This document shows positions 7,002 through 26,784 of a stretch of DNA of 64,000 bases, piece after piece. How positions within the stretch are numbered: position 1 is the first letter of the stretch; each line of letters starts with the position of its first letter. Source of the DNA: Patescibacteria group bacterium (GTDB taxonomy: Bacteria; Patescibacteriota; Microgenomatia; UBA1400; MFAQ01); assembly GCA_943355005.1 (NCBI GenBank), contig CALRDV010000002.1, positions 131,826 to 195,825 of the forward strand. Reading direction: 5' to 3'. Both the position numbers and the translations under genes were made by a program. Below the pieces are notes generated by a model. The model was not told the origin of the DNA. It saw nothing but the letters and a program-made list of their open reading frames with translations, and made no database searches.

Positions 7002-7042
7002 AAGTGAGCAAATGAAAAATTCCTTATTTTTCAGTTGCGAGC

Positions 7043-7066
7043 GCGGAGGTGTTGGATAACTACTGT
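7043..7066. repeat. Near-perfect 18-nt palindrome GGATAACTACTGTTATCC
   Basis: Seen directly in the sequence, downstream of tRNA-Ser(GGA). Its function is unknown; it could be a protein-binding site or part of a terminator. Confidence 0.4.
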
Positions 7067-7109
7067 TATCCGAACTCCTCACACAAACTAACACTCGAAC
7101 TTGTATATT

Positions 7110-7859: not shown

Positions 7860-7897
7860 GCCATATTCTACACCCAGAAACTAAAGAAAATTAATTG

Positions 7898-8060: not shown

Positions 8061-8106
8061 TAAAGACGAAGTCTTTAATCCTGAACACAACTAAAAAAAC
8101 TATTTG

Positions 8107-8180
8107 TGTACCCGGTGCGATTCGAACGCACAACCACTTCCTTCGGAGGGAAGTACTCTATCCAGTTGAGCTACGGATAC
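8107..8180 (-). tRNA. tRNA-Arg (anticodon CCG)
   Basis: The reverse complement is GTATCCGTAGCTCAACTGGATAGAGTACTTCCCTCCGAAGGAAGTGGTTGTGCGTTCGAATCGCACCGGGTACA, with anticodon loop CTCCGAA. Confidence 0.8.
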
Positions 8181-8194
8181 ATACAGGTATTATC

Positions 8195-8524
8195 TCACTC
8201 CCCCTTTTTATTCCACACCCTTTTATTATTTATTTCCTCTTTCTCCCGGAACGCCTTCTCAGCATCTATGTTTAAATGGTTAGCCAAATCAATCACATAG
8301 CTAAATACATCAGCCCATTCATGATCTAACTCCATCTTCTCCGAATTATCATCAGTATGCATTTTGGTATATTGTCTCGCAGCTTTAGCGAGCTCTCCAA
8401 CTTCTTCAGAAAGATACATAAACAGTTCAGGGACCGTTGTGTCAGTAAAGTCTCTCTCAATCACCATCTCATTTATATACTCCTGATAATCTCCCAAAGA
8501 CGCTTTATCTTTAATTTTCTTCAT
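8195..8524 (-). CDS. MazG-like nucleotide pyrophosphohydrolase domain protein
   Basis: 109 aa with the EEVGELAKAARQY ... E..DV pattern of the all-alpha NTP-PPase (MazG) fold. Confidence 0.6.
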   Translation of the reverse strand: MKKIKDKASLGDYQEYINEMVIERDFTDTTVPELFMYLSEEVGELAKAARQYTKMHTDDNSEKMELDHEWADVFSYVIDLANHLNIDAEKAFREKEEINNKRVWNKKGE

Positions 8525-8568
8525 ACATCAAAAATTATTATATTTAGCCGGGTCTATCCACCGGTGGG

Positions 8569-8650
8569 CGGAGGATACAGGAGTCGAACCTGTTAGCCCA
8601 AAAGGGCATTGGTTTTCGAAACCAACGCATTACCGTCCTGCCCATCCTCC
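8569..8650 (-). tRNA. tRNA-Ser (anticodon CGA), type II
   Basis: The reverse complement is GGAGGATGGGCAGGACGGTAATGCGTTGGTTTCGAAAACCAATGCCCTTTTGGGCTAACAGGTTCGACTCCTGTATCCTCCG, with anticodon loop TTCGAAA and a long variable arm. Confidence 0.8.
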
Positions 8651-8693
8651 ATCGACTCGCCGTAGCTTTAGCAGAGGCGGTCATCGACATTTG

Positions 8694-8768
8694 TGAGCCC
8701 GGTGCGACTCGAACGCACGACCTCCTCCTTCGCAGGGAGGCGCTCTAATCCAACTGAGCTACGGACTC
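8694..8768 (-). tRNA. tRNA-Arg (anticodon GCG as read; could be ACG-type isoacceptor)
   Basis: The reverse complement is GAGTCCGTAGCTCAGTTGGATTAGAGCGCCTCCCTGCGAAGGAGGAGGTCGTGCGTTCGAGTCGCACCGGGCTCA, with anticodon loop CTGCGAA. Confidence 0.75.
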
Positions 8769-8806
8769 ATACGAGCTCTATTTTATCATCCTACGGGTCT
8801 TTCTCC

Positions 8807-9307
8807 TCATTCCAAGGGCATCTTCTCTCCCGCCCATTTCAAAGCTCTGTCTACCCAGGTCACAGCCGGCTCCTGGTATATCACCTTTTCTAACATCAAA
8901 TTCTTAATTTCATCCTCCTTTTTAGGATCAATTACCACCACCAAATGCCATGGAACGATAGATAGATTTATCCTCATGAGCCTAGTACCCCACTTAGTCT
9001 CAAACCAAAAATTAGTCATCTCTTCATACCTGTAAGTCTTCTCTGTCGATTTTAATCCCCAAGAAGTCAAAGCTGTTTTTATCATCTTCGGTTCAGTCTT
9101 GGCCATGGCCCAAAGCATGAATACAAGCGCCCAAATAACCACTACGGGCATCAGACCCTCAATAAAGTACATAATTATAGACACGAGGAAAGCAATCACG
9201 ATTACGGAACTGTAAAATTCTTTCGTCCAAACTTTATGAGGCCTATCATATGCCTCAAATTCCAAAAGTTCTTTTTCACTGAAATCTAAAGTGTCGGTTT
9301 TAGCCAC
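8807..9307 (-). CDS. Hypothetical membrane protein
   Basis: 166 aa with two central hydrophobic helices (VIVIAFLVSIIMYFIEGLMPVVVIWALVFMLWAM). Confidence 0.4.
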   Translation of the reverse strand: MAKTDTLDFSEKELLEFEAYDRPHKVWTKEFYSSVIVIAFLVSIIMYFIEGLMPVVVIWALVFMLWAMAKTEPKMIKTALTSWGLKSTEKTYRYEEMTNFWFETKWGTRLMRINLSIVPWHLVVVIDPKKEDEIKNLMLEKVIYQEPAVTWVDRALKWAGEKMPLE

Positions 9308-9329
9308 ATTTCATCTTAGCATAAGGCTC

Positions 9330-10085
9330 TCAAAGTAACTTAAATGAAAACTGTGCATCAGATATCACAGATTCGTTGTCCGGCCAAGTTACCATTGGAC
9401 CCGATGCAGTAGCCGCGTAACCATAACCTTTATTGACCGTAATTAAACTTCTACGCCTCATGTCGACCCCACCTACCACATAGTTTCCACCTATCAAATA
9501 ATAAGGTTGGCCTTTTAAGTAAAACAAAGAATCATTTTCAAATACAAAATCAGGAAAATCTTTTGATGTTTTATCTTTAATACTTTTAATTTGATCTGAC
9601 AAAGAACTCTCCTCAACGTTGCGTTTTTCCACAGTTAAGATTGTCGCATAATTAATATTTCCAATTGTTTTTGTAGTTGGATTCAGAAATATCACGATGG
9701 CTCCTGTTTTACCGGTTTCATCTAGCTGCCACCCTGACGGAGGAGTAATTTGAAAACCCTCTTTTTCATTTTTATAAATTCCTCCCCCAATTACACCACT
9801 TTCAGTTGATTGTGAATTGTTTAAGGTGACTACTTGGTTCTTGTTAGTACTAGTCTTTGTAGGCATCGTAATCTCTAGGTCAGGAGCCTCACCCGTCCCT
9901 CTTAGCATAACAATAATAATTAACAACACAACAGGACCAATCCCTAAATATACCAACCATCTCCATGGAATCTTTTTGGAAGGCACCTTTTCAGTTTCCG
10001 TATTCTTCTCTACAAATACCGGAATATCCACTAATACTTGCTGATTTTTTTCACCCTCTTTCTGAATTATATTTTCGAGCTCCAT
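9330..10085 (-). CDS. Hypothetical membrane-anchored protein
   Basis: 251 aa with an N-terminal TM helix (WRWLVYLGIGPVVLLIIIVML), then a Thr-rich linker and a globular domain. No motif recognised. Confidence 0.4.
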   Translation of the reverse strand: MELENIIQKEGEKNQQVLVDIPVFVEKNTETEKVPSKKIPWRWLVYLGIGPVVLLIIIVMLRGTGEAPDLEITMPTKTSTNKNQVVTLNNSQSTESGVIGGGIYKNEKEGFQITPPSGWQLDETGKTGAIVIFLNPTTKTIGNINYATILTVEKRNVEESSLSDQIKSIKDKTSKDFPDFVFENDSLFYLKGQPYYLIGGNYVVGGVDMRRRSLITVNKGYGYAATASGPMVTWPDNESVISDAQFSFKLL

Positions 10086-10127
10086 AACTTCAGTTTAAAC
10101 CATCTGGGCGGACCTGTCCGCCGGTAG

Positions 10128-10212
10128 GCGGAGGGGGCGGGATTCGAACCCGCGGTATCTTGCGATACGGAGGTTTAGTAAACCTCTGCACTCGACCACT
10201 ATGCGACCCCTC
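10128..10212 (-). tRNA. Type II (long variable arm) tRNA with atypical anticodon loop, reading ACU with a canonical 5-bp stem. Identity uncertain: Ser/Leu-like, or a pseudogene.
   Basis: The reverse complement is GGAGGGGTCGCATAGTGGTCGAGTGCAGAGGTTTACTAAACCTCCGTATCGCAAGATACCGCGGGTTCGAATCCCGCCCCCTCCG. Acceptor, D-arm, long variable arm and T-arm are good. The anticodon stem GAGGT/ACCTC encloses loop TTACTAA. Confidence 0.55.
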
Positions 10213-10217
10213 CACGG

Positions 10218-10299
10218 GCGGAGAGTACAGGGGTCGAACCTGTTAGGGCTTACGCCCATTAGTTTTCAAGACTAACGCATTACCGTCCTGCCCACTCTC
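10218..10299 (-). tRNA. tRNA-Ser (anticodon TGA), type II
   Basis: The reverse complement is GGAGAGTGGGCAGGACGGTAATGCGTTAGTCTTGAAAACTAATGGGCGTAAGCCCTAACAGGTTCGACCCCTGTACTCTCCG, with anticodon loop CTTGAAA. Confidence 0.8.
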
Positions 10300-10359
10300 C
10301 GTGTGTGCTTATTTTACCATTCCAAGTGCCTCTACTGGTAAAATAACTCTTGATCGTGA

Positions 10360-10441
10360 TGGAGGCGTCCGATAGTGGTTATTCGAGCGGGTTGCTAACC
10401 CGCGGCCCAAAAGGCCTCGTGGGTTCGAATCCCACCGCCTC
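10360..10441 (+). tRNA. tRNA-Ser (anticodon GCT), type II
   Basis: GGAGGCGTCCGATAGTGGTTATTCGAGCGGGTTGCTAACCCGCGGCCCAAAAGGCCTCGTGGGTTCGAATCCCACCGCCTCCG, with anticodon loop TTGCTAA. Confidence 0.8.
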
Positions 10442-10488
10442 CGCAAATTAAGTCTATTCGCCTTGCGCGAGTAGACTTAAATTTCGTT

Positions 10489-10592
10489 CGTGGGATTCGA
10501 ACAAGCCGGAACTAGTTTCGTAACGAACCTAGTGAGGCAGGTCTTGAGGCACCGAAGGTGACCGAAAGCGAATCCTTCTCCCACCGCCTCCG
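10489..10592 (+). repeat. tRNA-derived structured element, copy A (104 nt; possible small ncRNA)
   Basis: It starts with GTGGGATTCGAAC, the reverse complement of a T-arm. It ends with GCGAATCCTTCTCCCACCGCCTCCGC, whose last 14 nt are identical to the 3' end of tRNA-Ser(GCT), i.e. T-stem 3' strand + acceptor 3' strand + discriminator. It has an internal hairpin CTAG-T-TTCG-TAA-CGAA-C-CTAG and a duplicated heptamer TGAGGCA. It is followed by a strong bidirectional terminator. Confidence 0.6.
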
Positions 10593-10593
10593 C

Positions 10594-10637
10594 TAAAAAT
10601 AAATGTCCTCGCTTGTCGGGGACATTTATTTTTACCT
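10594..10637. terminator. Bidirectional rho-independent terminator
   Basis: A 14-bp perfect stem, AAAAATAAATGTCC / GGACATTTATTTTT, flanked by A-run and T-run. Confidence 0.7.
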
Positions 10638-10639
10638 TA

Positions 10640-10734
10640 AGTGGGATTCGAGTGACGGAGGCAAGCTCGTAACGATCTTGCCGAGTCCGGTACGAGCAAA
10701 ACTTCAGCAGAAGTTTATGCGAGAAAATCCCACC
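10640..10734 (+). repeat. tRNA-derived structured element, divergent copy C (~95 nt)
   Basis: It starts GTGGGATTCGAG and ends GCGAGAAAATCCCACCG followed by T7. It contains the conserved hairpin with compensatory substitutions (GGCAAG-C-TCG-TAA-CGA-T-CTTGCC) and a second 7-bp hairpin (AAACTTC AGCA GAAGTTT). Confidence 0.5.
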
Positions 10735-10750
10735 GATTTTTTTATTGCCA

Positions 10751-10854
10751 TGTGGGATTCGAACGAGTCGGAAGCAGTTTTGTAACAAACCTGCTGAGAC
10801 AGGTCCTGAGACACAGCAGGTGACCGAAGGCGAATCCTTCCCCCACCGCCTCCG
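10751..10854 (+). repeat. tRNA-derived structured element, copy B (104 nt)
   Basis: It is collinear with copy A at ~85% identity. The hairpin stems show compensatory changes (GCAG-T-TTTG-TAA-CAAA-C-CTGC). The duplicated heptamer is TGAGACA in both repeats, a concerted G-to-A change relative to copy A. The 3' end, CCCACCGCCTCCGC, is identical. Confidence 0.6.
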
Positions 10855-10915
10855 CAATAGAAAATTCTCGCGACACGTCCTTGCCTATTCTTTTTTTATT
10901 TGAGAAGATAAGTTA

Positions 10916-12502: not shown

Positions 12503-13256
12503 GGTTGTGATGATGAATAAATTTTTTGTCCCCGTAAAGCTTTTCCATCTCGGATTTTACAAACTTCTTTGGGTTTTCGTCATAAGTTAAAGCTCTATTA
12601 ACGAAAGCTATCTCTGTAACTTCATTAACTACCGCTTCAATATCGTGCGAAATAAACACAAGTGTCAATTCCAGCTCATGATTTAGTTTTTTTAGTAAGT
12701 GATAGAACTGATCTTGAGCTTGTACATCCACTCCTGCCATCGGTTCATCCAGGAATATCACATCAGGCTGTCCCGCGAGAGCTCTAGCAATGAACACTCT
12801 TTGCTGTTGCCCTCCTGACAGATCTCCAATAATCCTATCTTTAAAATCGTACATTTCTACCTGTCTTAGAGAATCGCTAATAATTTTCTTGTCTTCTTTT
12901 CTCAGGTTCTTAAACAATCCAATTTTTCCAAACCTTCCCATAGCCACCACTTCATACACTGTTGCAGGAAAGTTAACGTCAAAATTAATCACCTTTTGTG
13001 GTACATACCCTACTCTAGTCCAATCCTTGAAGGTATGAATATCTTCACCAAACATCTTGACTACTCCCTTAGATGGTTTTAGTAACCCCAAAATAATTTT
13101 TATCAGCGTTGTTTTTCCTCCCCCGTTAGGACCAATCACCCCCAAATAATCACCTTTATGAATATTCAAACTAACTTTCTCCAATACAAGATCCTCATTG
13201 TAAGCAAAGCTCACTTCTTCAATTTCGATAATGTTTTGTGTGTGATCTACCGGCAT
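12495..13256 (-). CDS. znuC: Metal ABC transporter ATP-binding protein
   Basis: Walker A GVIGPNGGGKTTL, signature LSGGQQQRVFIARAL, Walker B VIFLDEP. Confidence 0.85.
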   Translation of the reverse strand: MPVDHTQNIIEIEEVSFAYNEDLVLEKVSLNIHKGDYLGVIGPNGGGKTTLIKIILGLLKPSKGVVKMFGEDIHTFKDWTRVGYVPQKVINFDVNFPATVYEVVAMGRFGKIGLFKNLRKEDKKIISDSLRQVEMYDFKDRIIGDLSGGQQQRVFIARALAGQPDVIFLDEPMAGVDVQAQDQFYHLLKKLNHELELTLVFISHDIEAVVNEVTEIAFVNRALTYDENPKKFVKSEMEKLYGDKKFIHHHNHA

Positions 13257-14170
13257 TCTAGTGCAATTTTTAAGTTTGCTAAATTTTCCTCCATTAAAGT
13301 TAAATAATTTTTCCCTTGCTTTGCATCATTATCACTTATTCCTTCAATCGGGTCTAATACTAAGGTTTTTGCCCCAATCTCTTCAGCTACTGTCTGAGCC
13401 AGCTTTGGACTTACCAATTTTTCAAAAAATATGTACTTCAGATTTTCTTTCTTCGCTAGATTAGAAATCTCTACAAGCTGTTTAGTAGATGGCTCCTCAT
13501 CCGGACTTATCCCGGATATCGAAATTTGTGTTAATCCGTACTCTCGTGTCAAATATCCAAACGCATCATGTGAAGTCACCACTTTGTGTTCCTTGCATTG
13601 CGACAATCCCACTTTAAAGTCCGCGGACAATTTATCCAACTTAGCCAAAATCACTGTTTGATTTTCCAGATAATATCTCGAATTTGATTCATCCATCCTA
13701 ATCAGCTCCATTGTTATCATTTCTACTTCTTTTTTAGCCAACTCTGGCGAAAGCCATACATGGGGATCATTATTCTCCATTAGTCCGGTAGCTAACTCAA
13801 CGACCTTAGCCCCGTCTTTTGCTATTTTTGTCGCCCAAGATTCAAAGCCACCACCATTTATAAAGACTAATTTGCTTTTTTGAATCTGCACCAAATCTCT
13901 GGCAGTCGGTTCGTAATCGTGTGGCTCAACTCCGGAAGGGGTAATGTTTATGACATTAACCTTATCTCCCCCAATTTCCTTGACAAAGAAATAAACCGGA
14001 TAAAACGAAGTCACCACTAACGGTTTTATTTCACTGTCATTGCGAGGCACTGAGTGCTGTGGCCCGCTGGTACCCGAAGGGGTGAATCCAGGATAAATAT
14101 CAATTAATCCCAAAACAGCTATCACAAAAATAAAAACCAATATTACCGTTAGAATCGTATTTCTCTTCAC
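13247..14170 (-). CDS. znuA: Metal ABC transporter substrate-binding protein (TroA/ZnuA, cluster 9 SBP). It carries an in-frame palindromic-repeat insertion after the signal anchor.
   Basis: An N-terminal signal anchor, a His/Asp-rich metal site (HDYEP, HVWLSPE) and the two-lobed SBP pattern. Residues TPSGTSGPQHSVPRNDSE are encoded by a copy of the dispersed repeat family, cattgcgag...ggcccgctggtacccgaaggggtgaatcc. Confidence 0.8.
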   Translation of the reverse strand: MKRNTILTVILVFIFVIAVLGLIDIYPGFTPSGTSGPQHSVPRNDSEIKPLVVTSFYPVYFFVKEIGGDKVNVINITPSGVEPHDYEPTARDLVQIQKSKLVFINGGGFESWATKIAKDGAKVVELATGLMENNDPHVWLSPELAKKEVEMITMELIRMDESNSRYYLENQTVILAKLDKLSADFKVGLSQCKEHKVVTSHDAFGYLTREYGLTQISISGISPDEEPSTKQLVEISNLAKKENLKYIFFEKLVSPKLAQTVAEEIGAKTLVLDPIEGISDNDAKQGKNYLTLMEENLANLKIALECR

Positions 14171-14188: not shown

Positions 14189-14863
14189 TTAATGGGCCAA
14201 TGCCAGCCCCCACACAATTTCTACTCCGGCTTTCTTAAGGACTTTCGTGCATTCCCTCATGTCGGCACCACTGGTAAAAACATCATCCACTAGCAATACT
14301 TTTTTAGCTTTCAGTCTTCCGGACCATTCTTTGCCGACAGAAAACACCCCTTTTATGTTTTCCTCTCTTTCTTCCCTTGTCTTCATTAACACTTGTTGTT
14401 TTGTATTTTTGTTTCTCCTTAACACCCTCTCTATTTTGACACCTGGCATCTGAGATCCAATAACTTGCCCCAGCAATTCCGCTTGATTAAACCCCCGCCA
14501 ATTTTCCCGATAATAATACAATGGCACCGGAACCAGCAAATCAAAAACAATTCCTGTTTCAAACCTGAAATCTCTAAGAACTATACCCGCCAAATCCTTA
14601 TTAAACCCATATTTGATCCCATCCACCACTGCTCTCATGATCGGTTCCTTATATTCAAAAATGGCTATCAACCCATTCATTCCACTTGGTGAATCACACC
14701 TCGGATGAGTCCACCCCATAGGAGAACCTTCACCACACTCAGGACATATCTGGTCTATCGTGTCCAGTCTTTCCATACAATCCTTACACAAAAAGCTTCC
14801 TATTTCTTTGCACCCGACACATATCTTTGGGTATACAAAATCTATAATTGCCTCCAAAATCAT
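14189..14863 (-). CDS. comFC: ComF family protein (competence protein ComFC, PRTase-like)
   Basis: N-terminal Cys-rich zinc ribbon (CVGCKEIGSFLCKDC ... CPECG) and a C-terminal phosphoribosyltransferase motif, VLLVDDVFTSGADM. Confidence 0.8.
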   Translation of the reverse strand: MILEAIIDFVYPKICVGCKEIGSFLCKDCMERLDTIDQICPECGEGSPMGWTHPRCDSPSGMNGLIAIFEYKEPIMRAVVDGIKYGFNKDLAGIVLRDFRFETGIVFDLLVPVPLYYYRENWRGFNQAELLGQVIGSQMPGVKIERVLRRNKNTKQQVLMKTREEREENIKGVFSVGKEWSGRLKAKKVLLVDDVFTSGADMRECTKVLKKAGVEIVWGLALAH

Positions 14864-15585: not shown

Positions 15586-15694
15586 CACTCACCACCCAAC
15601 CACTGTCATTCCCGACCTGAGTGGGCCGCTGGTACCCGAAGGGGTAAATCCATAAAAGTTGACCTCTACGCTCATTCATGATATTATAAGACAT

Positions 15695-16109
15695 GGGGAC
15701 GACAGGATTCGATGGGATAGTACGTTTACAGTTGCAAGCCTCCTTTGGTAATAGGAGTCAAAAAGACCAAAAAATACTTGTCAATAAAGAAGACAAAATA
15801 CTTGGTTTCATCTCTAGTGGAGTTAAATCCCTTTTTGGTGAAGTCAAATCTTCCGCTCCCGTTTACGCTTTTGCCTAAATAGTAGCTTTGAAGACGTCTT
15901 GAGAGCCAGCGGATCCCGGGCTTCTCACAAGGCGAAAAAATACCGGATTGAATGCTTCAGGTTTGATTTAGGCCTGAGGACTAACTTTTCTAAATCGACC
16001 ATAAGGTGTTCTTGTTTGCCTGAAGCTTTATGGAAAATCGGCAAACTACGCTTGTAGACTCTGTAGGCTTAATATTTCAGACGAGAGTTCAATTCTCTCC
16101 GTCTCCACA
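15695..16109 (+). ncRNA. ssrA: tmRNA (SsrA), ~413 nt
   Basis: The 5' end GGGGACGACAGGATTCGATGGGA pairs with the 3' end CGTCTCC-A-CA to form a tRNA-like acceptor stem. The 3' T-arm is GAGAGTTCAATTCTCTC. The internal tag reading frame ends ...SSAPVYAFA followed by TAA TAG. It lies immediately downstream of smpB and is followed by a terminator hairpin. Confidence 0.8.
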
Positions 16110-16113
16110 TAAA

Positions 16114-18343: not shown

Positions 18344-19024
18344 TTATTCCTGATTATTTTGATCATCATGCTCTTCAATTAATTGTGAAATTACCGCCAC
18401 CACTTTGTCAGGGTAAGCTATAGACTCAAAAGTAAAAGCCGAAGATTCATCTCTCGCGTTCGGAACATTCTGTTTTGAGGCAGTTTCTACAATCACATCA
18501 CCGTAATTAAAGAAACTGGCAAGCATCCCTCTTTGAGAATAATTAACATCTTCAATTTTGTTCAGTTGACATACGTTGACATTTTTACTCAGTAGCCCCA
18601 CAAAATCAACATCTATTATTCTCTCATTTGTCACTATGTAAACATTGTAAAACCACATTAAAAAATTCTGCAGTCCGTAAAAAGCCAGAACCATATACCA
18701 AAGCATTGTCATACCAATCAGAGCATTTCCGTCCAACATTTTAATAAAAGGAAATTCTTTCCAAAACATCGGTATAAATAATGAAAAAGAAACTACTGTT
18801 ATCCACCCCAGATTCCTAATTATATGTTTCCTACCCAAAATTACGATTTTTTCATCTTCTTGTTGAGATTCAAACTTTGACCATTCAGGAATCGCCACCA
18901 AAGATCCCCACTGGCTACGAGGACATGATCCTAAAATCTTTTCCACATCATCAACCACATTCTCTGATTTCTTGGCTTTAAAAATCTCCGGCATACCTAA
19001 TTGTACCAAACACCACGTCGTCAT
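18344..19024 (-). CDS. YdbT/YdbS-like bacterial PH (bPH_2) domain membrane protein
   Basis: A two-TM hairpin (RNLGWITVVSFSLFIPMFW ... MLWYMVLAFYGL) followed by a domain containing IVTNERIIDVDF and ending GDVIVETAS, as in bPH_2. Confidence 0.55.
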   Translation of the reverse strand: MTTWCLVQLGMPEIFKAKKSENVVDDVEKILGSCPRSQWGSLVAIPEWSKFESQQEDEKIVILGRKHIIRNLGWITVVSFSLFIPMFWKEFPFIKMLDGNALIGMTMLWYMVLAFYGLQNFLMWFYNVYIVTNERIIDVDFVGLLSKNVNVCQLNKIEDVNYSQRGMLASFFNYGDVIVETASKQNVPNARDESSAFTFESIAYPDKVVAVISQLIEEHDDQNNQE

Positions 19025-19320
19025 TGCGAGACTCGACTTTAGGTCGGCCGTGGCAATCCCACACCACTGTCATTCCCGACCCGCTTCGCCATAGCTTCAG
19101 CGAGGCGAGCCTGAGTGGGCCGCTGGTACCCGAAGGGGGAAATCCCCCTCCACTCGTCATTGCGAGGAGTGAAACGACGTGGCAATCCCACACCACTGTC
19201 ATTCCCGACCTGATCGGGAATCTATATAGATAAATACCAATTTTTAACACCATGACTACTAGCACTTAGAGTTACGAGTGAGTACGGTTTTTGGCGGGCT
19301 TCGAAACGCGATAAAAAAAT
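19017..19320. repeat. Intergenic cluster of dispersed palindromic repeat elements (composite of at least four repeat types)
   Basis: Two copies of cgtcattgcgag-[hairpin]-gtggcaatccc, two copies of (cac)tgtcattcccgacc(tgatcgggaatc), one copy of gagtgggccgctggtacccgaagggggaaatcc, and one copy of agttacgagtgagtacggtttttggcgggcttcgaaac. The same units recur at more than 15 other places in the window. Confidence 0.8.
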
Positions 19321-19323
19321 TGA

Positions 19324-21078
19324 CTATTTTTTCTCAATATTAAACAATCCACTCTTCAGTGATATCTTCCCCGGCGCCCTCAAAGTAAATACTTTGTAAT
19401 ACTCTTGTCCAGAAACCTGGAAAGATCCTCTATTGGTTTGGAAAACAACATTAGCCGTCTGTCCATTATCTCCATAAGTGATACTTAGACTACTAACACT
19501 TGTAATCGCCCCGCCTTGACTATTTGCCTCATTCTTCATCTGTTCCATACTCCAAGGATCACCAGATTTATTAAAACAACCTACATAATCAATAGGCAAA
19601 ATGTGTTCTACCCCACTACCACTCCGATACACAATAATCGCGTTTAAGATATCCGACATCTCCGATTCATTTAGCCAAGGATGAGATCTCCCGCAGCTTT
19701 CCTTGTTTTCATTTCTATACCAAGCCTTATAAAACCACGGACTACCGGCAGTTTTTTCATAAGCTTGCGACGTCCACCCACTTCTCCCTGTCGGCGTATC
19801 CCAAAGCGAAGGAGTCGTATATCCCGCATAGTTATCTGTATAAGACTCTTGATACCCGCCTGATGTTGAAGCATACCAAGATTTAAATGGTTTTCCGTTG
19901 TTCATCATTACCCAGCCTCGAGTTGCATTTACAGCTTCTTCCCACTTCCCCCCCTTATTACTATTTTTATACACCTGGCATGCTTGAGTCGTACAGATTG
20001 CTCCTCCTCTGCCTTCATCTGTCCAAGCAAGAACGTAAGACCTCGCCGCTACGGCTTGTGCCTTCAGAGCTTCCATTCCTCCGTTATCCCCCCAACCACC
20101 GGGCATCTCATAAATTCTCTTGACATATGTTTCTATATCCATTCGTCCATACCCTTGGACACTTATTTGTTTCCCAGCATCATAATCTTTCTTGATAGAG
20201 ATACTTCCTCCGTAATAAGCATGAAGAATATCATCCGCGTTTTGTCCGGCCTTAGCTCTGCCATAAGCTCCATACTGACTCATTCCCTTAAAGTGAGGTG
20301 CCCCAAAAGAAAACGAGGCAAATGCAGGGGAAAATCCAGGGTTGTAATCCGGTCTGGAAGCAGGATCGTCTGCTAGAGGCACATCACCTACTGTTGTTTG
20401 AAAATTTCCTTGTTTCTCAGCCAGTAGTGATTGCTGCTGAGCCGACAAAGCTGCGATTTTCCCGGACAGATCTTTTTGGTATGCTTTCGCTTTGGCCACT
20501 TCTCCAAAGAAGAAGCTGTTCTGCTTATCCAGCTCTGTCTGAAGCTTAGCCAATTGTTCTTTCTGAGTCTCCAAGTTCTTTTTATCTATCTCAAGTTGGC
20601 CTATCTCAGTTACCAAATTTACTATTACAGCCTTATCCCTATCACTACTTTCTTGTCTATAGTTCAGCTCCAATCTGGCTTCACCCATGCTTGTTTTAGA
20701 TAACAGGCTCGCCCATAAAGGCTGTGACCTAAGCCGGATATACATTTCTCTTATCTTTGCAGACAAGACGACATATTGCGTCGAAACCTTCTCACCTCGA
20801 TCTTTTATACCCATTTCTGTTGCCTTAAGTTTCGTAACCGCTAGATTTATCTGTGATTGAATCGATTTAATCCTGGCATTTAGCTTCGTAATTTCCGCTT
20901 CGAGTGGCACCGTAGCATTCTTACTCGCCTGCAAAGAACTATTTAATTCTCCTATTTGAGCTCCCAAACAAGTAATTAGTTCATCCCCGCTTTTGCCATC
21001 GCAGCTAGTATCTGCCTTTACTAGTCCGGCAAAAACACTGAGCAAAACCACCATGATTAATAAATATCTCCACTTCAT
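19324..21078 (-). CDS. SpoIID/LytB domain protein with an N-terminal signal peptide and long coiled-coil region
   Basis: The C-terminal domain has the SpoIID/LytB signature (GMSQYGAYGRAKAGQNADDILHAYYGG, ALKAQAVAARSY). The N-terminal ~250 aa is coiled-coil. Confidence 0.7.
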   Translation of the reverse strand: MKWRYLLIMVVLLSVFAGLVKADTSCDGKSGDELITCLGAQIGELNSSLQASKNATVPLEAEITKLNARIKSIQSQINLAVTKLKATEMGIKDRGEKVSTQYVVLSAKIREMYIRLRSQPLWASLLSKTSMGEARLELNYRQESSDRDKAVIVNLVTEIGQLEIDKKNLETQKEQLAKLQTELDKQNSFFFGEVAKAKAYQKDLSGKIAALSAQQQSLLAEKQGNFQTTVGDVPLADDPASRPDYNPGFSPAFASFSFGAPHFKGMSQYGAYGRAKAGQNADDILHAYYGGSISIKKDYDAGKQISVQGYGRMDIETYVKRIYEMPGGWGDNGGMEALKAQAVAARSYVLAWTDEGRGGAICTTQACQVYKNSNKGGKWEEAVNATRGWVMMNNGKPFKSWYASTSGGYQESYTDNYAGYTTPSLWDTPTGRSGWTSQAYEKTAGSPWFYKAWYRNENKESCGRSHPWLNESEMSDILNAIIVYRSGSGVEHILPIDYVGCFNKSGDPWSMEQMKNEANSQGGAITSVSSLSITYGDNGQTANVVFQTNRGSFQVSGQEYYKVFTLRAPGKISLKSGLFNIEKK

Positions 21079-21098: not shown

Positions 21099-21524
21099 AT
21101 GATAAAATTACCTTGCATGAAATATCTTTCCCGGCTGCTCGCCGCCACACTTCTATCTTGGTTTTTGCTTTTTCCCACTCTTACACACGCTGCAAGTCTC
21201 AACCTTGTCTCTCCCAGAGGTAACTGTGGAAACAACGAAATTGATACTGCTCTTGGCTGTATTTCCACAGAAGTGGGAACGGGTCCAAACACCTTCTTCA
21301 GTTCCATTATTGGCATCGCAGTCGGACTCGGTGGAGGTCTTGCCCTCCTTCTTATGCTTTATGGGGTCTTTATCGTCACCACCTCTGCCGGCATTCCGGA
21401 CAAGCTCAAGGAAGGCCAAGAAATTATTACCTCCGCCATCTCAGGTCTTATTTTTATCCTTCTCTCCGTCTTTCTCCTCAATTTCATCGGTATCAAAGTT
21501 TTAAGCCTACCTGGTTTACAATAG
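21099..21524 (+). CDS. Small two-TM secreted/membrane protein, putative VirB2/TrbC-like T4SS pilin paralog
   Basis: A classical signal peptide (cleavage near THA-AS), a Cys-containing mature region, and then two hydrophobic helices separated by a short polar loop (IVTTSAGIPDKLKEGQEI). Confidence 0.4.
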   Translation: MIKLPCMKYLSRLLAATLLSWFLLFPTLTHAASLNLVSPRGNCGNNEIDTALGCISTEVGTGPNTFFSSIIGIAVGLGGGLALLLMLYGVFIVTTSAGIPDKLKEGQEIITSAISGLIFILLSVFLLNFIGIKVLSLPGLQ

Positions 21525-21528
21525 AAAT

Positions 21529-21873
21529 ATGTTAAATTTCACCAAACAGGTCTATGCAGCTGCCGGTGGCACAGGAGTTGATATTTCAAGTATGGACAGC
21601 CCCGTCAAAGCCTTGATTCCCAACAATGCCGACCTGGGCAAATTATTCTCTCAACCCCTCCTCCGTTTTGTCTTTGTCGCCGTCGGTCTGGTTTTTATGT
21701 TTAATCTGGTCATGGCCGGCTGGGACCTTATGCTTAGCTCCGGAGATCCAAAGAAAGTTGCCACAGCCACCACCAGAGTCACCAACGGTTTTATGGGAAT
21801 AATTATATCGATGACGGCATATGTAGTTGTCAAAATCATCCTGACATTCTTAGGTCTAGGTACCATCATTTAA
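21529..21873 (+). CDS. Putative VirB2/TrbC-like pilin paralog
   Basis: An N-terminal leader MLNFTKQVYAAAGG, a first TM helix, the loop SSGDPKKVATA, and a second TM helix. This is the same architecture and loop motif as the 24167-26784 array. Confidence 0.5.
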   Translation: MLNFTKQVYAAAGGTGVDISSMDSPVKALIPNNADLGKLFSQPLLRFVFVAVGLVFMFNLVMAGWDLMLSSGDPKKVATATTRVTNGFMGIIISMTAYVVVKIILTFLGLGTII

Positions 21874-21900
21874 CAATCTCTTGTTATAATTCAAAACTGA

Positions 21901-22611
21901 ATGGAACCTTCAATAAAACACATTGCAATCTTGATGGACGGCAATCGTCGTTGGGCCAAACAAAAAGGTATGGAGCCTTTCAAGGGGCACGAGTACGCCG
22001 CCAACCATACAATTGAACCCCTTATTGAAAAATGTGTCGATCTAGGCATTCCCTATGTTACCTTTTGGGCCTTCTCCACCGAAAACTGGAAAAGGGATGA
22101 AACTGAAGTCAATGAACTTTTGAGAATATTTCGTTTTGCTTTCGGTGGTTTAGCCACCAGATTTATCAAGAGAGGAGCAAAGCTTAAAATTTTGGGGGAT
22201 ATTTCCCGCTTCCCTAAAGATATTGTTGAAAAATCTATCGAGACCATGAATAAGTCTTCACAGAACCATGCCATCACCGTTTCTTTTGCTCTAAATTATG
22301 GTGGTCGTGATGAGATCCTCCGAGCCGTCAAAAAAATCATTCAAGAAAAACTTACCTCTGACAACGTAAATGAAGAAATTTTTTCAGCTCATCTAGACAC
22401 TTCTGGTATGCCAGACCCGGATATGATCATCCGTACCGGAGGTGAACAAAGAACCTCCGGTTATCTACCTTGGCAGTCCGCCTACTCCGAACTTTTCTTC
22501 ACCCCCACCTTATTTCCCGACTTCACTCCCAACAAACTCGAAGAAATTATCCGCGACTTCAGCCACAGAGATAGACGATTCGGCGGCGACTCCACTCCAA
22601 AGACGAAATAA
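21901..22611 (+). CDS. uppS: Isoprenyl transferase (undecaprenyl diphosphate synthase)
   Basis: HIAILMDGNRRWAKQKG near the N-terminus and the family-typical C-terminal region ending FSHRDRRFGG. Confidence 0.9.
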   Translation: MEPSIKHIAILMDGNRRWAKQKGMEPFKGHEYAANHTIEPLIEKCVDLGIPYVTFWAFSTENWKRDETEVNELLRIFRFAFGGLATRFIKRGAKLKILGDISRFPKDIVEKSIETMNKSSQNHAITVSFALNYGGRDEILRAVKKIIQEKLTSDNVNEEIFSAHLDTSGMPDPDMIIRTGGEQRTSGYLPWQSAYSELFFTPTLFPDFTPNKLEEIIRDFSHRDRRFGGDSTPKTK

Positions 22612-22899
22612 AATCTCATCAGTTGCTGAAACATCAAAACCTTTTCTTTCAAATCTTTGTCTTATTTGCTGATAGCTACCAGTCAAAGGTATCTCTCCTC
22701 CGGGATACTTATAAATATTTAATTCTCGGTGATTCATTCTTTCTCCCGTAAAGCGCATATTAACAGGCTGATTCCGCCAATTTCGTGGTATTTCCATAAA
22801 AACAATCCTAAAACAATCCCCCCACCAAACACTCTCACGATTGTCACTCAGGTAAAGCCGAACATTTGGTGCAGAAGACTAGCCAACAAACCGCACGGA

Positions 22900-22990
22900 A
22901 GCTGTACATAGGAGCCGAAGGGAATCCCGCTAATGCGGGACGAGATAGTTACGAGTGAGTACGGTTTTTGGCGGTCTTCGAACCAACAAG
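22900..22990. repeat. Dispersed repeat copy (agttacgagtgagtacggtttttggcggtcttcgaacc type plus flanking unit)
   Basis: Matches 19265-19315 at ~90% identity. Located between the uppS and polyprenyl synthetase genes. Confidence 0.6.
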
Positions 22991-22995
22991 TGAAG

Positions 22996-24078
22996 CTAGA
23001 CTTCCCTCTCCACCATATACAAAGCAATCCCCTCAAGATAATTCACAGCTTCCTCATTTAATCCTATTCCGTGGAGCTTGGCCACACTACCACTCGCTCG
23101 TTTTGCATAATTCCTAGCCACTTCCACCGAATATTTATAAGAACCGCTTTCTTTAATGGCCTTTTTCGCCACTTCTATTTCATTTTTATTGGCATCCAAT
23201 TTCCCCCAAACTCTCATCAAGTCAATTTTTTGCTCCTTAGATCCTATCTCCATTGTCTTGGACACCAACAAAGTAACCTTTCCTTGTAACAAGTCAGAAT
23301 TTGCCGACTTTCCTGTTTTTTCTTCATCTCCATATACTCCCAGTACATCGTCTTGAAGTTGAAATGCGATACCCGCATCTACCGAATAATCATGCAGGAC
23401 ATCCATCGTCTCACGATTTAGCCCGGAAAGAATTCCTCCTATCAATAGTGGGTTTTCATAAGTATAAATCGCTGTCTTTGCCCTATGAAGACTCATTACT
23501 TTCTCTTCGGACATGTCTCCAAGTTTTGGCAAACTCGTGTCATACGCTTGTCCATAAGCAGTATTAGTTATCCCTCTCAGAAATTGTTTCATTGCATTAT
23601 TTACCTTTTCCGAGTCAAAACCACTAGTCAAAAGCCTCTCAAAACCCAGGCATAAGACAGCATCTCCCACATTCACCGCCATACTATCTCCATAATGTTC
23701 ATCACCATTTGCAAAAAATACTTGAGTTGTCGGCAAACCCCTTCTCACCAAATCTCTATCCATAAAATCGTCATGCATTAATAATGCTGTGTGAACAAGT
23801 TCCACTGCCTCCGCAGCCCTCCAAACTCTTTCATCAGACTTTATTCCACCAAGTAAAAAGCTGTAATAAATAAATGATGCCCTAATTCTCTTGGCTTTTC
23901 TTAAATTGTGTTCCTTAGCGTGAAGCAACATCTTTCTTATCAATTCTTTTTGTGATTGATTGAATCCAAAATTACTGGCAATCTCTTCCTCCCAATACTT
24001 TTCCAGCCTAGAATCAGCCTCTTTGGCTAACAGCTCCAATCTAGCTTTTGCCCGTCTACCTAAGTCATTTGTTTCCAT
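22996..24078 (-). CDS. Polyprenyl synthetase family protein (trans-isoprenyl diphosphate synthase)
   Basis: First and second Asp-rich motifs (LMHDDFMDRD and FQLQDDVLGVYGDEEKTGKS). Confidence 0.85.
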   Translation of the reverse strand: METNDLGRRAKARLELLAKEADSRLEKYWEEEIASNFGFNQSQKELIRKMLLHAKEHNLRKAKRIRASFIYYSFLLGGIKSDERVWRAAEAVELVHTALLMHDDFMDRDLVRRGLPTTQVFFANGDEHYGDSMAVNVGDAVLCLGFERLLTSGFDSEKVNNAMKQFLRGITNTAYGQAYDTSLPKLGDMSEEKVMSLHRAKTAIYTYENPLLIGGILSGLNRETMDVLHDYSVDAGIAFQLQDDVLGVYGDEEKTGKSANSDLLQGKVTLLVSKTMEIGSKEQKIDLMRVWGKLDANKNEIEVAKKAIKESGSYKYSVEVARNYAKRASGSVAKLHGIGLNEEAVNYLEGIALYMVEREV

Positions 24079-24093
24079 GTCTCCAATTTTACT

Positions 24094-24113
24094 GTAAAAT
24101 GACAGTAATCCAT
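24094..24113. promoter_or_regulatory. Inverted repeat TTACTGTAAAATGACAGTAA in the divergent promoter region upstream of the pilin array
   Basis: Half-sites TTACTGT(A) / (T)GACAGTAA. The site is ~55 nt upstream of the first pilin ATG and ~20 nt upstream of the divergently transcribed polyprenyl synthetase gene. Confidence 0.35.
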
Positions 24114-24166
24114 AAATTAATAAGGATTACGTCATCCTCGACCTGATCGAGGATCCACAAATACAT

Positions 24167-24487
24167 ATGATTATTCGACCAGCCCTGGCAGCCTTAGAAC
24201 CTCTAGAAGGACTTTATGCCCCGGGAAAAGCCATGGGAGGTAGTGGGGCTACTCTATCCACTCTACTAAATCCGCTAATTTATAATTTCCTCATCATCTC
24301 CGGAATTCTTGCTTTCATTGTCATTATTTTCGCCGGTTTTAGCTACATCACCGCTTCAGGGGACAAAGGAAAAATTGAGATGTCCCAGAACATGCTAAAC
24401 TATGGCATACTAGGTTTAATTGTTGTTGTTTTGGCCTTTTTAATTACTCGAGTTATTGGAGCCGTCTTTGGCTTTAAATTCTTTTAA
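24167..24487 (+). CDS. VirB2/TrbC-like pilin paralog 1
   Basis: 106 aa: TM1 (LIYNFLIISGILAFIVIIFAGF), loop TASGDKGKIEMSQN, TM2 (ILGLIVVVLAFLITRVIG). Confidence 0.55.
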   Translation: MIIRPALAALEPLEGLYAPGKAMGGSGATLSTLLNPLIYNFLIISGILAFIVIIFAGFSYITASGDKGKIEMSQNMLNYGILGLIVVVLAFLITRVIGAVFGFKFF

Positions 24488-24493
24488 ATACTT

Positions 24494-24862
24494 ATGATAA
24501 ATAATTTAAAATATTTTACATCTACCGTCTACGCAGCAGCTGGTGATGTCGTAGGAATTATAGATCTACCGGTAGGTGTTCCAAAAGAAGTTGTTCAAAC
24601 TACAGATATTATATCTGCCCTCATCCGCTTTTTAATCGTTATTGCCGGACTTTTCTCTCTTTTTCAATTTATAACCGGAGGTATCGCTTTTATTTCCTCT
24701 GGTGGTGACAAAGGTAAAATCACAGAAGCCCAAAACAAAATTCAAATGAGTATTATTGGACTAGTCATTATTACTGCTAGTTTTATAATCATCGCTCTCG
24801 TCAGTAGAATACTTTTCGGATCTTTTACCGCCATACTCGCACCAAAATTACAATCAATCTAA
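24494..24862 (+). CDS. VirB2/TrbC-like pilin paralog 2
   Basis: Leader MINNLKYFTSTVYAAAGD, TM1, loop SSGGDKGKITEAQ, TM2. Confidence 0.55.
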   Translation: MINNLKYFTSTVYAAAGDVVGIIDLPVGVPKEVVQTTDIISALIRFLIVIAGLFSLFQFITGGIAFISSGGDKGKITEAQNKIQMSIIGLVIITASFIIIALVSRILFGSFTAILAPKLQSI

Positions 24863-24863
24863 A

Positions 24864-25232
24864 ATGTTTAAAATTATATCTCCCATCTATGCATCTAACC
24901 CTATTGATTTAGGAAAGGAAATAGAGGGGTCCGGAGTATACCAAACAGGCATAAGTTCTACTGTTCAAACCAGTTTTGGAGGTTTTATTTCTTCTGTTAT
25001 TACTACACTAACTGTTGTTGGTAGTCTAGCCTTCGTTGTTTACTTTACTGTCGCGGGACTAAAATGGATTAGCGCCGGCGGCGACAAGGGCAAAGTAGCC
25101 GAAGCTCAAACCCAAATGACCCAATCCGCCATCGGCCTAATCGCCATTGTAGCCTCTTACTTTATCATCGGCATTGTCGGTGCCGTCCTTGGTTTAGATA
25201 TTCTCAATCCATTTAAAGCGCTTAAATTTTAA
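24864..25232 (+). CDS. VirB2/TrbC-like pilin paralog 3
   Basis: Leader MFKIISPIYASNP, TM1, loop SAGGDKGKVAEAQ, TM2. It starts 2 nt after paralog 2. Confidence 0.55.
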   Translation: MFKIISPIYASNPIDLGKEIEGSGVYQTGISSTVQTSFGGFISSVITTLTVVGSLAFVVYFTVAGLKWISAGGDKGKVAEAQTQMTQSAIGLIAIVASYFIIGIVGAVLGLDILNPFKALKF

Positions 25233-25236
25233 TAAC

Positions 25237-25590
25237 ATGATCATACAAATAGCCCAACCTGCTCTAGCTGCCGATGAAATAGTAAACAATGCCATCTCTA
25301 GCAAAGTCACCAGTTTAGGTGCGGGTGGAGGTCTAGCTTTTTACATTGCCACTCTCTGGCAAACCGTAATCACCGTAGGAGGCATCGCCTTCATTATTTA
25401 TCTCGTTTGGGGTGGCATAGAGTATCTCACTTCAGGGGGTGACAAGGGTCGGATTGACGATGCTCAGAAAAAAATTACCAGTTCTGTAATCGGTATTGTG
25501 ATCCTTGTTGCTTCCTACTCCATCACCTATTTCATCCAACAGGTCTTCAAGATTAACATTCTCAAACCTGTATTTCCCAACGCACTATGA
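25237..25590 (+). CDS. VirB2/TrbC-like pilin paralog 4
   Basis: Leader MIIQIAQPALAADE, TM1, loop TSGGDKGRIDDAQ, TM2. Confidence 0.55.
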   Translation: MIIQIAQPALAADEIVNNAISSKVTSLGAGGGLAFYIATLWQTVITVGGIAFIIYLVWGGIEYLTSGGDKGRIDDAQKKITSSVIGIVILVASYSITYFIQQVFKINILKPVFPNAL

Positions 25591-25949
25591 TCACAAGTTT
25601 TATTCCCAAAGTATTCGCCGCCGCCGATATAGAACTCCCTATCGGCGACACTGTTACCAAAAATAACTTTTTTGGCTATACATGCATCGGCCATCTCGTT
25701 AGCAACTTAGTTAGCGCCGCTTTTATTATTTCAGGTATCGCTTTCTTTGTTATCTTGGTCATGGGTGGAGTCCAGTGGCTGGTCTCAGGTGGCGACAAGG
25801 GTAAAGTCGAAAGTGCTCAGAAAAGTATTTCTGCAGCTCTCATCGGTTTAGCTATAGTTGCCAGTAGTTACGCTGTTTATATCTTAGTTCTTGAGTTCTT
25901 CGGTATCAATCTCGACGCGCTCTGTACAGCTAACCCACTAGGAAATTGA
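25587..25949 (+). CDS. VirB2/TrbC-like pilin paralog 5
   Basis: Leader MITSFIPKVFAAADI, TM1, loop VSGGDKGKVESAQ, TM2. It overlaps paralog 4 by 4 nt. Confidence 0.55.
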   Translation: MITSFIPKVFAAADIELPIGDTVTKNNFFGYTCIGHLVSNLVSAAFIISGIAFFVILVMGGVQWLVSGGDKGKVESAQKSISAALIGLAIVASSYAVYILVLEFFGINLDALCTANPLGN

Positions 25950-26011
25950 CAAGACTAAAATCATATATAATAGTAAGTATTACGAATATCAATTATTAAA
26001 AAATAAAAAAT

Positions 26012-26353
26012 ATGTCCTTTATTTCCCAAGTCTACGCAGCTACCGGCCAACTAGGAGTTCCCCAACCAACGGGTATGAAAATCACCGATATCGGTGTTCT
26101 TATTAGTCGTGTCATTTCCGTCGCCTTTATTATTGCCGGCATCCTTACCTTCGCTTTCTTAGTCATGGGTGGTATCGAGTGGCTAACTTCAGGTGGAGAC
26201 AAAGGTAAAACCGAAAGCGCCAGAAACCGTATCACTGCCGCTATCGTCGGTCTTGCCATCGTCGCCGCATCATGGGCTCTAATGAAACTCATTGCCTACT
26301 TCTTCGGTGTCGACGTCTTCGAGGGAAACATCAATATCCCTAAACCTTACTAA
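26012..26353 (+). CDS. VirB2/TrbC-like pilin paralog 6
   Basis: Leader MSFISQVYAATGQ, TM1, loop TSGGDKGKTESAR, TM2. Confidence 0.55.
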   Translation: MSFISQVYAATGQLGVPQPTGMKITDIGVLISRVISVAFIIAGILTFAFLVMGGIEWLTSGGDKGKTESARNRITAAIVGLAIVAASWALMKLIAYFFGVDVFEGNINIPKPY

Positions 26354-26372
26354 GCATTTAGGATTAGAAAAT

Positions 26373-26402
26373 AAAAAATCCCGGTTACCCGGGTTTTTTT
26401 AT
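26373..26402 (+). terminator. Rho-independent terminator
   Basis: AAAAAATCCCGGTTACCCGGGTTTTTTTAT: a GC-rich 7-bp stem followed by T7. Confidence 0.7.
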
Positions 26403-26418
26403 AATATATAATCAAATC

Positions 26419-26784
26419 ATGTCATTCCAATTAGTTACACAAGCTTATGCTGCGAGCTGGGCTTCAATTGATCCAGCATGTGTCGGCTCACAAATTGGCT
26501 CTGTAGATGCCAGTGATGTCGTCACCATTGGTGGTATTAAATGTTTAATTGCTAACCTTCTTTCTCCCATTCCTGGACTCATCGCTCTAGTGGCTGTCGG
26601 TGTACTCATCATGGCAGGTATTCGTCTTATGTCTGCCGGAGCCGAGCCCAAAGCCATCGCCAGCGCTTGGAACATGTTCACTTACGCCATCATCGGTCTC
26701 ATTCTTCTTGCAGTAGTTTGGCTAGTTCTTGTAATAATCGAGAACTTCACCGGAGCTCAGGTAACCAAATTCGGAATCCCTTAA
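26419..26784 (+). CDS. VirB2/TrbC-like pilin paralog 7 (divergent)
   Basis: Leader MSFQLVTQAYAASWA, TM1 (LLSPIPGLIALVAVGVLIMAGI), loop SAGAEPKAIASAW, TM2. Its own promoter-like ATAATATATAAT box follows the upstream terminator. Confidence 0.5.
   Translation: MSFQLVTQAYAASWASIDPACVGSQIGSVDASDVVTIGGIKCLIANLLSPIPGLIALVAVGVLIMAGIRLMSAGAEPKAIASAWNMFTYAIIGLILLAVVWLVLVIIENFTGAQVTKFGIP

Follow-up and report, generated by a model that had tools for sequence, protein, structure and literature searches.

Hairpin repeats resembling Ssn-related motifs lie on a single strand of a Collierbacteria-like genome segment, several of them in frame within protein genes

Short palindromic units recur along a 64,000-nt stretch of contig CALRDV010000002.1 (assembly GCA_943355005.1, positions 131,826 to 195,825 of the forward strand) from a Patescibacteria group bacterium, and the question raised by this locus is which kind of element these units represent and what placed them where they are. 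The entire stretch is referred to here as the window, and coordinates given without a locus name are positions in it. A scan for the common 5′ end identifies a hairpin-repeat family of 19 copies at 12 loci, all on the + strand, with the invariant ends GTCATT(C/G)C … G(G/C)AATC(C/T) shared by three subtypes, R1, R2 and R3. R1 is a 26-nt unit of the form (C/T)GTCATTCCCGACCTGATCGGGAATCC. R2, of the form GTCATTGCGAG…GGCAATCC, displays a 5-bp outer stem, ATTGC/GCAAT, enclosing a variable inner hairpin, and R3 is the 3′ portion of a long variant, GTCATTCCCGACC…GGGG(G/T)AAATCC, which is present in relatives too. The units measure 26–77 nt and each forms a single hairpin. Chance expectation for the pattern searches was taken from dinucleotide-preserving shuffles: the R1 pattern has 7 matches in the window (0.02 expected), the R2 pattern 6 and the R3 pattern 3 (0 expected for both). 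A first-pass annotation of this DNA had described dispersed, recurring units combined modularly, and these are real, far above the shuffled expectation and located where it had placed them; a modular dispersed palindromic family is supported. The four unit types that it distinguished resolve differently, into one family with subtypes, in which R3 is not a unit of its own, and an unrelated repeat of two copies, R4, which stands outside the family.

The repeats most similar to this family are those of Neisseria. The consensus of the Neisseria Transformation Sequence (NTS), CGTCATTCCCGCGMAVGCGGGAATCYRG, contains the older dRS3 element, ATTCCC-N8-GGGAAT (Chenal 2025, Nat Commun 16:2388, PMC11893778). 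SsnA, a 94-aa single-domain GIY-YIG nuclease (cd10448), binds NTS only as single-stranded DNA (ssDNA) and only in the forward strand, cutting a few nucleotides upstream; the three bases before the palindrome are critical for cleavage, the C after it is critical for binding, and activity is lost when the sequence of the palindrome is changed with its structure preserved (PMC11893778). Such hairpins are recognised by small single-domain GIY-YIG Ssn nucleases in Neisseria and Wolbachia, and the generalised repeats, termed Ssn-related motifs (SRMs), occur in many phyla and typically flank ssn genes, the function of Ssn and of the repeats outside Neisseria being still an open question by the paper's own statement (PMC11893778). 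The ends of R1 are identical to the NTS ends, CGTCATTCCCG…CGGGAATCC, the inner stem and loop alone being different, and R2 and R3 share with NTS just GTCATT… and …AATCC. All 19 copies read GTC-AT…AT-C, with GTC preceding the palindrome and C following it, at the positions that are critical in NTS, and the hairpin by which the SRM class is recognised, an inverted repeat of 20–50 nt folding as ssDNA, is found in the family. Judged by these signatures the window repeats are assigned to the NTS/SRM motif class. The Rickettsia palindromic element (RPE) system, which had been named as the closest described analogue, gives way to the NTS/dRS3/SRM class as the apparently closest known system, because the NTS consensus shares both ends with R1.

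Folded as DNA, R1 is predicted to form an 8-bp stem with a 5-nt loop (−7.4 to −8.5 kcal/mol; z −2.7 to −4.3), and R2 and R3 present a weaker 5-bp outer stem with a variable inner hairpin (z −0.4 to −1.8). Nine distinct R1 variants were compared, from the window and related contigs; 100% of the cells pair, and four of the eight pairs show changes on both sides. The three innermost pairs of the R1 stem played no part in selecting the sequences, and across six distinct sequences their cells are canonical in 18 of 18 cases, with the stem types CGA/TCG, GGG/CCC and GGA/TCC; two of these three pairs vary on both sides. The conserved hairpin with compensatory stem changes noticed at first pass is thus real, being supported both by the folding of copies and by the pairing of variants.

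Confinement of the copies to this one region had been named as the result that would speak against a dispersed family, and the opposite was found. In a breadth scan with the R1 pattern, using one genome per species, the same 25-mers occur at at least 120 loci in metagenome-assembled genomes (MAGs) of many phyla, with G+C contents of 30–68%; the matches listed include Campylobacterota, Bacteroidales, Dehalococcoidia, Nitrospirota, beta-, gamma-, alpha- and deltaproteobacteria, Patescibacteria, Treponema, Fibrobacter and Pirellulales. A comparable phylum breadth of SRMs has been reported (PMC11893778). Genes for GIY-YIG nucleases were sought by tblastn with GIY-YIG sequences, and then with a hidden Markov model (HMM) built from those sequences and three real hits. 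In a Flavobacteriales MAG (locus L040) a single-domain GIY-YIG gene (PF01541, E 4e-16) is positioned between an inverted pair of R1-variant repeats, GTCATTCCGGGCTTGACCCGGAATC, which are exactly an R1 variant of the window. Similarly, at locus L143 a GIY-YIG gene (E 5e-17) lies between an inverted pair of R2-type repeats, GTCATTGCGAG…GCAATC, and a third GIY-YIG gene, at L106, is broken by a stop codon. L040 and L143 reproduce the published NTS-ssnA-NTS architecture for both main subtypes. The host of the window appears to be close to Candidatus Collierbacteria (Microgenomates, candidate phyla radiation, CPR), which supplies the best matches of its TsaD at up to 80% identity. Within this clade, the Collierbacteria contig L164, whose LepA is 83–89% identical to named Candidatus Collierbacteria proteins, ends in an apparent GIY-YIG N-terminus (…CIYIMSNEYNTTIYIGVTSN), immediately next to an R2 repeat whose subtype is that of the window copy at 60266; this fragment is suggestive of Ssn in the same clade.

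Seven of the 19 copies (37%) are located inside open reading frames (ORFs) and are read through in frame: two in tsaD, one in valS, one in a ZnuA-like protein gene and three in a PrgI-like protein gene. In tsaD (60850–61947, minus strand) a long R1-like copy (61156–61200) is followed by an R1 (61216–61241), and together they encode residues ~236–264, IPGQARNDVKGGVRFLDSRHGVPVARND. The AlphaFold model of TsaD has a pLDDT (predicted local distance difference test) below 50 at residues 236–262, between two helices, and a confident core, as would be expected of a tolerated loop insertion. Alignment of 26 TsaD orthologues reveals 0, 1 (…WIPDQVGND…) or 2 inserts, the sequence …WIPDQVGND… being R1 read on the reverse strand, and a second insertion hot spot after 'NWI'. 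The stem subtype at one tsaD site differs by species, with GGG/CCC in the window, CGA/TCG in L123, GGA/TCC in L125 and the long R3 in L124; from these sequences, either the site was hit repeatedly or its copies were homogenised from elsewhere. Intact tsaD copies keep a perfect palindrome within the coding sequence, and the L126 copy appears degenerate. The different stem subtypes at the same tsaD site across species point tentatively to hairpins within essential genes being kept perfect, through compensatory change or gene conversion.

The valS copy, an R2 at 58389–58421 in a gene of the minus strand (58074–60221), encodes a 14-aa insert, …VRLPRHSAPRNDEF…, which is missing from a 79%-identical ValS orthologue; the DNA alignment at the insertion boundary was too diverged to fix a target site. 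A repeat copy is also held by lepA in relatives. The differences among orthologues in the TsaD and ValS inserts suggest mobility or turnover of the repeats. In the ZnuA-like substrate-binding ORF (13247–14170, minus strand) the copy at 14036–14089 is of R2 type at its 5′ end and of R3 type in its 3′ part; its translation, …PGFTPSGTSGPQHSVPRND…, falls between membrane anchor and folded domain. The three copies of the PrgI-like ORF (38081–39136, + strand) are contained in its Pro/Thr-rich linker: an R2 (38558–38594) encoding SVIANPPSEGVAIQ, an R1 with a GGG/CCC stem (38708–38733) encoding VIPGLTRNP and a further R2 (38768–38812) encoding SVIARDLPAVEGARQS. Hairpins are tolerated inside essential proteins and kept there as hairpins. 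The repeats give rise to spurious ORFs and make core genes vary in length (TsaD 335–376, ValS 690–750 and LepA 574–631 aa), which is of relevance to annotators of CPR genomes.

Two observations concern protein starts. At L126 (11316–11380) an N-terminal extension of ValS, MVHNDGGGGSFLHFCRNDDKN, resembles a translated hairpin repeat. In the window, the first ATG of ORF 18344–19024 is the reverse complement of GTCAT, and the 5′ end of the R2 copy at 19020–19059 overlaps this first possible ATG; judging from these sequences, new start regions may arise from the repeats too.

The + strand that carries all 19 window copies, regardless of gene direction, is the C-rich strand, GC skew being negative in every 2-kb bin of the window, in + and − gene blocks alike. 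The syntenic loci of four relatives were fetched in the opposite orientation (positive skew), and convincing copies, counted by hand from the listing, again occupy the C-rich strand: 5/5 in L124, ~9/10 in L125, 4/4 in L126 and 1/1 in L123. In a second region, around lepA, the same strand holds 3/3 copies in L247 and 8/10 in L249. Metagenome contigs were picked by an R2 16-mer, with |skew| >0.1 of both signs, many of them Collierbacteria-like in G+C and skew; they carry 53 copies on the C-rich strand against 12, and by majority 19 loci against 2 (p = 2e-4). Pooling of the CPR-like loci, including the window, gives 106 copies on the C-rich strand and 13 on the other, whereas relative to the overlapping or nearest gene 68 copies are in the same direction and 51 in the opposite. 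Thus, the bias follows the compositional strand and not transcription. Among IMG/VR contigs with the R1 pattern, with the repeats masked, 16 loci favour the C-rich strand and 0 the other.

Some copies are arranged in pairs or arrays. Tail-to-tail inverted hairpin pairs, ~10 nt apart, are found at L125 17444–17515 and at L249 1151–1222 and 18703–18775; in both L249 pairs the partner that faces the other way belongs to a distinct variant, GTCATCGCGAG…GGCGATCC, and members of such pairs are the sole G-rich-strand copies in the L125 and L249 loci. The densest arrays observed in this analysis belong to IMG/VR material. A Mu-like contig, IMGVR_UViG_3300003667_000196 (L298, L270), packs 21 hairpins of the R1 type into 7.4 kb, every one on the C-rich strand and including a composite 83-nt unit, and L263 resembles it, with 15 copies over 8.5 kb. 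ORFs of the Mu-like contig resemble a MuB-type ATPase, a lysozyme and a transposase C-terminus, by sequence appearance alone.

The Neisseria NTS/SRM system and the present family are alike in the identical ends, the directional hairpin, the many copies in clusters and mosaics, the spread over phyla and the inverted pairs of window-type repeats flanking single-domain GIY-YIG genes (L040, L143). In contrast, the window adds R2, with its ATTGC/GCAAT outer stem and variable inner hairpin, and the long R3, carries 37% of its copies in genes as compared with 2% of NTS copies in N. meningitidis, and lacks an ssn gene (PMC11893778 for the Neisseria value). Its CPR/Patescibacteria host does not figure in the main text of PMC11893778, and neither the frequent in-frame copies nor the strict placement on the C-rich strand was encountered in that main text.

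We consider it probable that the repeats are NTS-like SRMs and that at least one Ssn gene resides, or resided until recently, beyond the window in this genome. The hairpins would have multiplied from the copies flanking such genes, surviving where they do little harm, in intergenic gaps and in in-frame loops and linkers. The template of the lagging strand is where most ssDNA is exposed, and GC skew as usually read identifies it with the G-rich strand. In the simplest reading the C-rich strand, presumably the leading-strand template, would then be exposed least as ssDNA, and selection against self-cleavage at replication forks would place the cleavable forward form there. Alternatively, an insertion mechanism acting on one template strand alone would give the same bias. 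More tentatively, and with clearly less confidence than in the Ssn-linked origin itself, the C-rich-strand placement in Collierbacteria-like CPR and in some phage contigs might be the footprint of an ssDNA nuclease on its own chromosome, produced either by the avoidance of self-cleavage at forks or by strand-specific, replication-coupled insertion. Orientation by compositional strand is the expected trace of a nuclease that cuts one strand of ssDNA. If this is true, repeat orientation would read out in-vivo Ssn activity and replication direction in uncultured bacteria, and it could link Ssn biochemistry to replication, transformation or repair. With the window, the SRM system extends to the candidate phyla radiation, a group of tiny uncultured bacteria that scavenge DNA and possess genes for competence.

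Several results weigh against the proposal of an Ssn-linked origin and the reading of the strand placement. Searches by tblastn and HMM found no GIY-YIG ORF in the window (64 kb) or in the ~100 kb of relatives' DNA syntenic to it, and the sole candidate of the clade is the L164 fragment, 24 residues at a contig end with an HMM E value of 0.04. The published degenerate SRM string, HGTCWYN(0-2)YYVSBRHN(0-5)WNVSBRGN(0-2)RNCYNB, has 0 literal matches in the window on either strand; this string was hand-built from 29 genomes, and its failure is judged to be a geometry artefact and not evidence against homology, because R1 departs from it by a one-base shift in stem/loop geometry. Besides R2 and R3 the window contains several stem variants, and given the sensitivity of SsnA to palindrome sequence, a single enzyme may be unable to act on every copy, or many of the copies may be relics. 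With regard to strand, the cross-phylum sample of R1 genomes has 6 loci on the C-rich strand and 15 on the other, which is not significant and if anything reversed; a general link between orientation and GC skew was rejected on this sample, and the C-rich-strand rule is therefore not universal. Finally, the window contains dnaN (45768–46880, minus), dnaA (47230–48681, minus) and rnpA (48893–49240, plus), with five DnaA-box-like 9-mers (≤1 mismatch) at 46984–47229, and this neighbourhood looks like that of a replication origin. GC skew stays at −0.1 to −0.33 on both sides of dnaA/dnaN, with no change of sign, so that the role of the C-rich strand as leading-strand template is an assumption; either replication starts at another place or the skew reflects it imperfectly.

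The in-frame copies bring the family close to autonomous selfish palindromes of the RPE type or to transposable elements of the miniature inverted-repeat class (MITEs), mobilised by a transposase, with no link to Ssn and tolerated as junk in proteins. Palindromic repeats in frame in protein genes were reportedly described for Rickettsia by Ogata and colleagues in 2000. The copies in tsaD, valS and the ZnuA-like and PrgI-like genes, the differences in presence among orthologues and the low-confidence TsaD loop (pLDDT <50 at 236–262) all fit such an origin, and this behaviour within proteins agrees with published RPEs and Coxiella MITEs. The RPE likeness seen at first pass is thus strengthened by in-frame copies in protein-coding genes, including housekeeping genes, where palindromes are tolerated as surface loops, a feature that had gone unnoticed there, and it is weakened by size, host range and the NTS signature: RPEs measure ~100–150 bp and are restricted to Rickettsia, whereas the window units measure 26–77 nt, carry NTS-identical ends, have the same 25-mer across phyla, reside in a Collierbacteria-like host and elsewhere flank GIY-YIG genes. 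The MITE label fares less well. MITEs possess the terminal inverted repeats of a parent insertion sequence (IS) together with target-site duplications and typically span 50–500 bp, and in the single hairpins of the family no such architecture was seen, no consistent direct duplications were found by eye at the flanks of the copies of the window and its relatives, and Pfam and NCBIfam scans of the submitted ORFs returned no transposase. An origin as RPE- or MITE-type elements is accordingly regarded as unlikely. Lower still is the probability of a system of repetitive extragenic palindromic (REP) sequences and their REP-associated tyrosine transposase (RAYT), known also as REPINs, in which a domesticated Y1 transposase, IS200/IS605-like, moves hairpins as ssDNA. 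The two have in common short hairpins whose 5′ flank is conserved, clusters and mosaics of copies as in bacterial interspersed mosaic elements (BIMEs), ssDNA biology and an enzyme gene between inverted copies, and an orientation tied to the compositional strand is what replication-coupled ssDNA transposition would be expected to produce, in line with work on IS608. The conserved flank of the window family is nevertheless GTC(A) and not the GTAG of REPs, the genes flanked by window-type repeats encode GIY-YIG proteins and not RAYTs, and neither a Y1 transposase domain nor a RAYT was detected among the scanned window ORFs. The polarity is opposite as well: in the IS200/IS605 model the active strand lies on the lagging-strand template, and if activity resides in the forward strand, insertion of this type would favour the G-rich strand.

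Three R1 or R2 copies begin 5–19 nt past + strand stop codons in sense orientation, namely an R1 at 49245–49270 (5 nt past rnpA), an R1 at 54252–54277 (19 nt past the RNase H gene, rnhA) and an R2 at 57951–57990 (7 nt past the L25 gene rplY, between the convergent rplY and valS). This would suit elements acting in RNA at the ends of genes, whether in transcription termination, in mRNA stabilisation or as processing sites. The earlier placement of copies at gene ends stands for these three genes and does not extend to the seven copies within ORFs, others again being upstream of genes. Furthermore, the hairpins are followed by no T-run, a terminator scan finds nothing at 18900–19400, no Rfam match was obtained, and orientation is fixed to one DNA strand while gene direction is ignored (68 same, 51 opposite), so that a function in RNA is very improbable as an account of the family. 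Much the same low standing is given, with slightly less credit, to the proposal that the repeats are target sites for insertion sequences of the IS110/IS1111 type or for filamentous-phage recombinases, as dRS3 is for the Neisseria Nf prophages. It draws on the citation of dRS3 as a phage recombinase target (PMC11893778) and on the co-oriented copies of the Mu-like IMG/VR contig, yet none of the window copies is interrupted or bordered by an integrase, an IS110-type gene or a prophage, and such a role describes how repeats are used without explaining their origin or orientation; it is possible as a secondary use. Integron attC sites offer a further comparison. They are hairpins active only as ssDNA on one strand, and a tyrosine integrase recombines them; like the window repeats they combine one-strand ssDNA hairpins with a replication-biased chromosomal orientation that limits exposure of the active strand, and they differ from them in the enzyme, in sequence and cassette context, and in not being dispersed into genes.

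The remaining copies of the family are intergenic or lie at gene borders, again on the + strand. The long R3 subtype at 15605–15651 had been described as following the ORF at 15328; in fact smpB ends 278 nt ahead of it, and the transfer-messenger RNA (tmRNA) gene begins 44 nt beyond it. The R2 at 19020–19059 is the first of a cluster that continues with a long R3 subtype (GTCATTCCCGACC…GGGGGAAATCC) at 19069–19145, which starts like R1 and had been read as an R1 joined to R3, a second R2 at 19156–19188 and an R1 (GTCATTCCCGACCTGATCGGGAATC; 8-bp stem, 5-nt loop) at 19198–19223. An R1 variant with compensatory stem changes, GTCATCCTCGACCTGATCGAGGATCC, occupies 24131–24156 between divergent genes. 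Just upstream of the valS start codon an R1 (60231–60256) and an R2 (60266–60303) are adjacent, together spanning 60231–60303, and another R1 (60418–60443) is intergenic between valS and tsaD. The tmRNA gene itself (15695–16110; Rfam 111 bits) has an unusually long predicted tag of 32 aa (ARAGORN), and the hairpin 44 nt upstream of it precedes an apparent TTGACC / TATTAT promoter, identified by eye.

R4 is a 36-nt direct repeat with two copies on the + strand, 35 of 36 nt being identical. The first (19270–19305) begins 46 nt beyond the R1 at 19198–19223 and ends 18 nt from the stop of a minus-strand gene, and the second (22947–22982) ends 13 nt from that of a different gene on the minus strand. 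Its pattern has these 2 matches in the window, with 0 expected from shuffles. Its earlier inclusion as a unit of the family is not borne out: there are two copies only, the fold is no better than that of shuffles, and none were found elsewhere in loci L001–L246. The first copy is without an Rfam match, the second having been covered by the gathering-threshold scan alone, and neither a terminator nor a convincing promoter signal was found for R4.

Other features of the window were recorded alongside the repeats. A tRNA cluster at 6917–10869 contains five tRNA-Ser genes, one of them with the ARAGORN anticodon ACT (10127–10213), and two tRNA-Arg genes, together with tRNA-like repeat fragments at 7893–7951, 8012–8052, 10490–10607 and 10752–10869 that are called by neither ARAGORN nor Rfam. 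A type IV secretion-like gene set is distributed over 21099–26784, 8807–9307 and 38081–41693; at least five of its nine small ORFs match the PF18895 pilin family, and the set also comprises a VirB3-like ORF, the PrgI-like ORF and a TraG/VirB4-like P-loop ATPase. Lastly, a comF-family gene (14189–14863) adjoins the hairpin at 14036.

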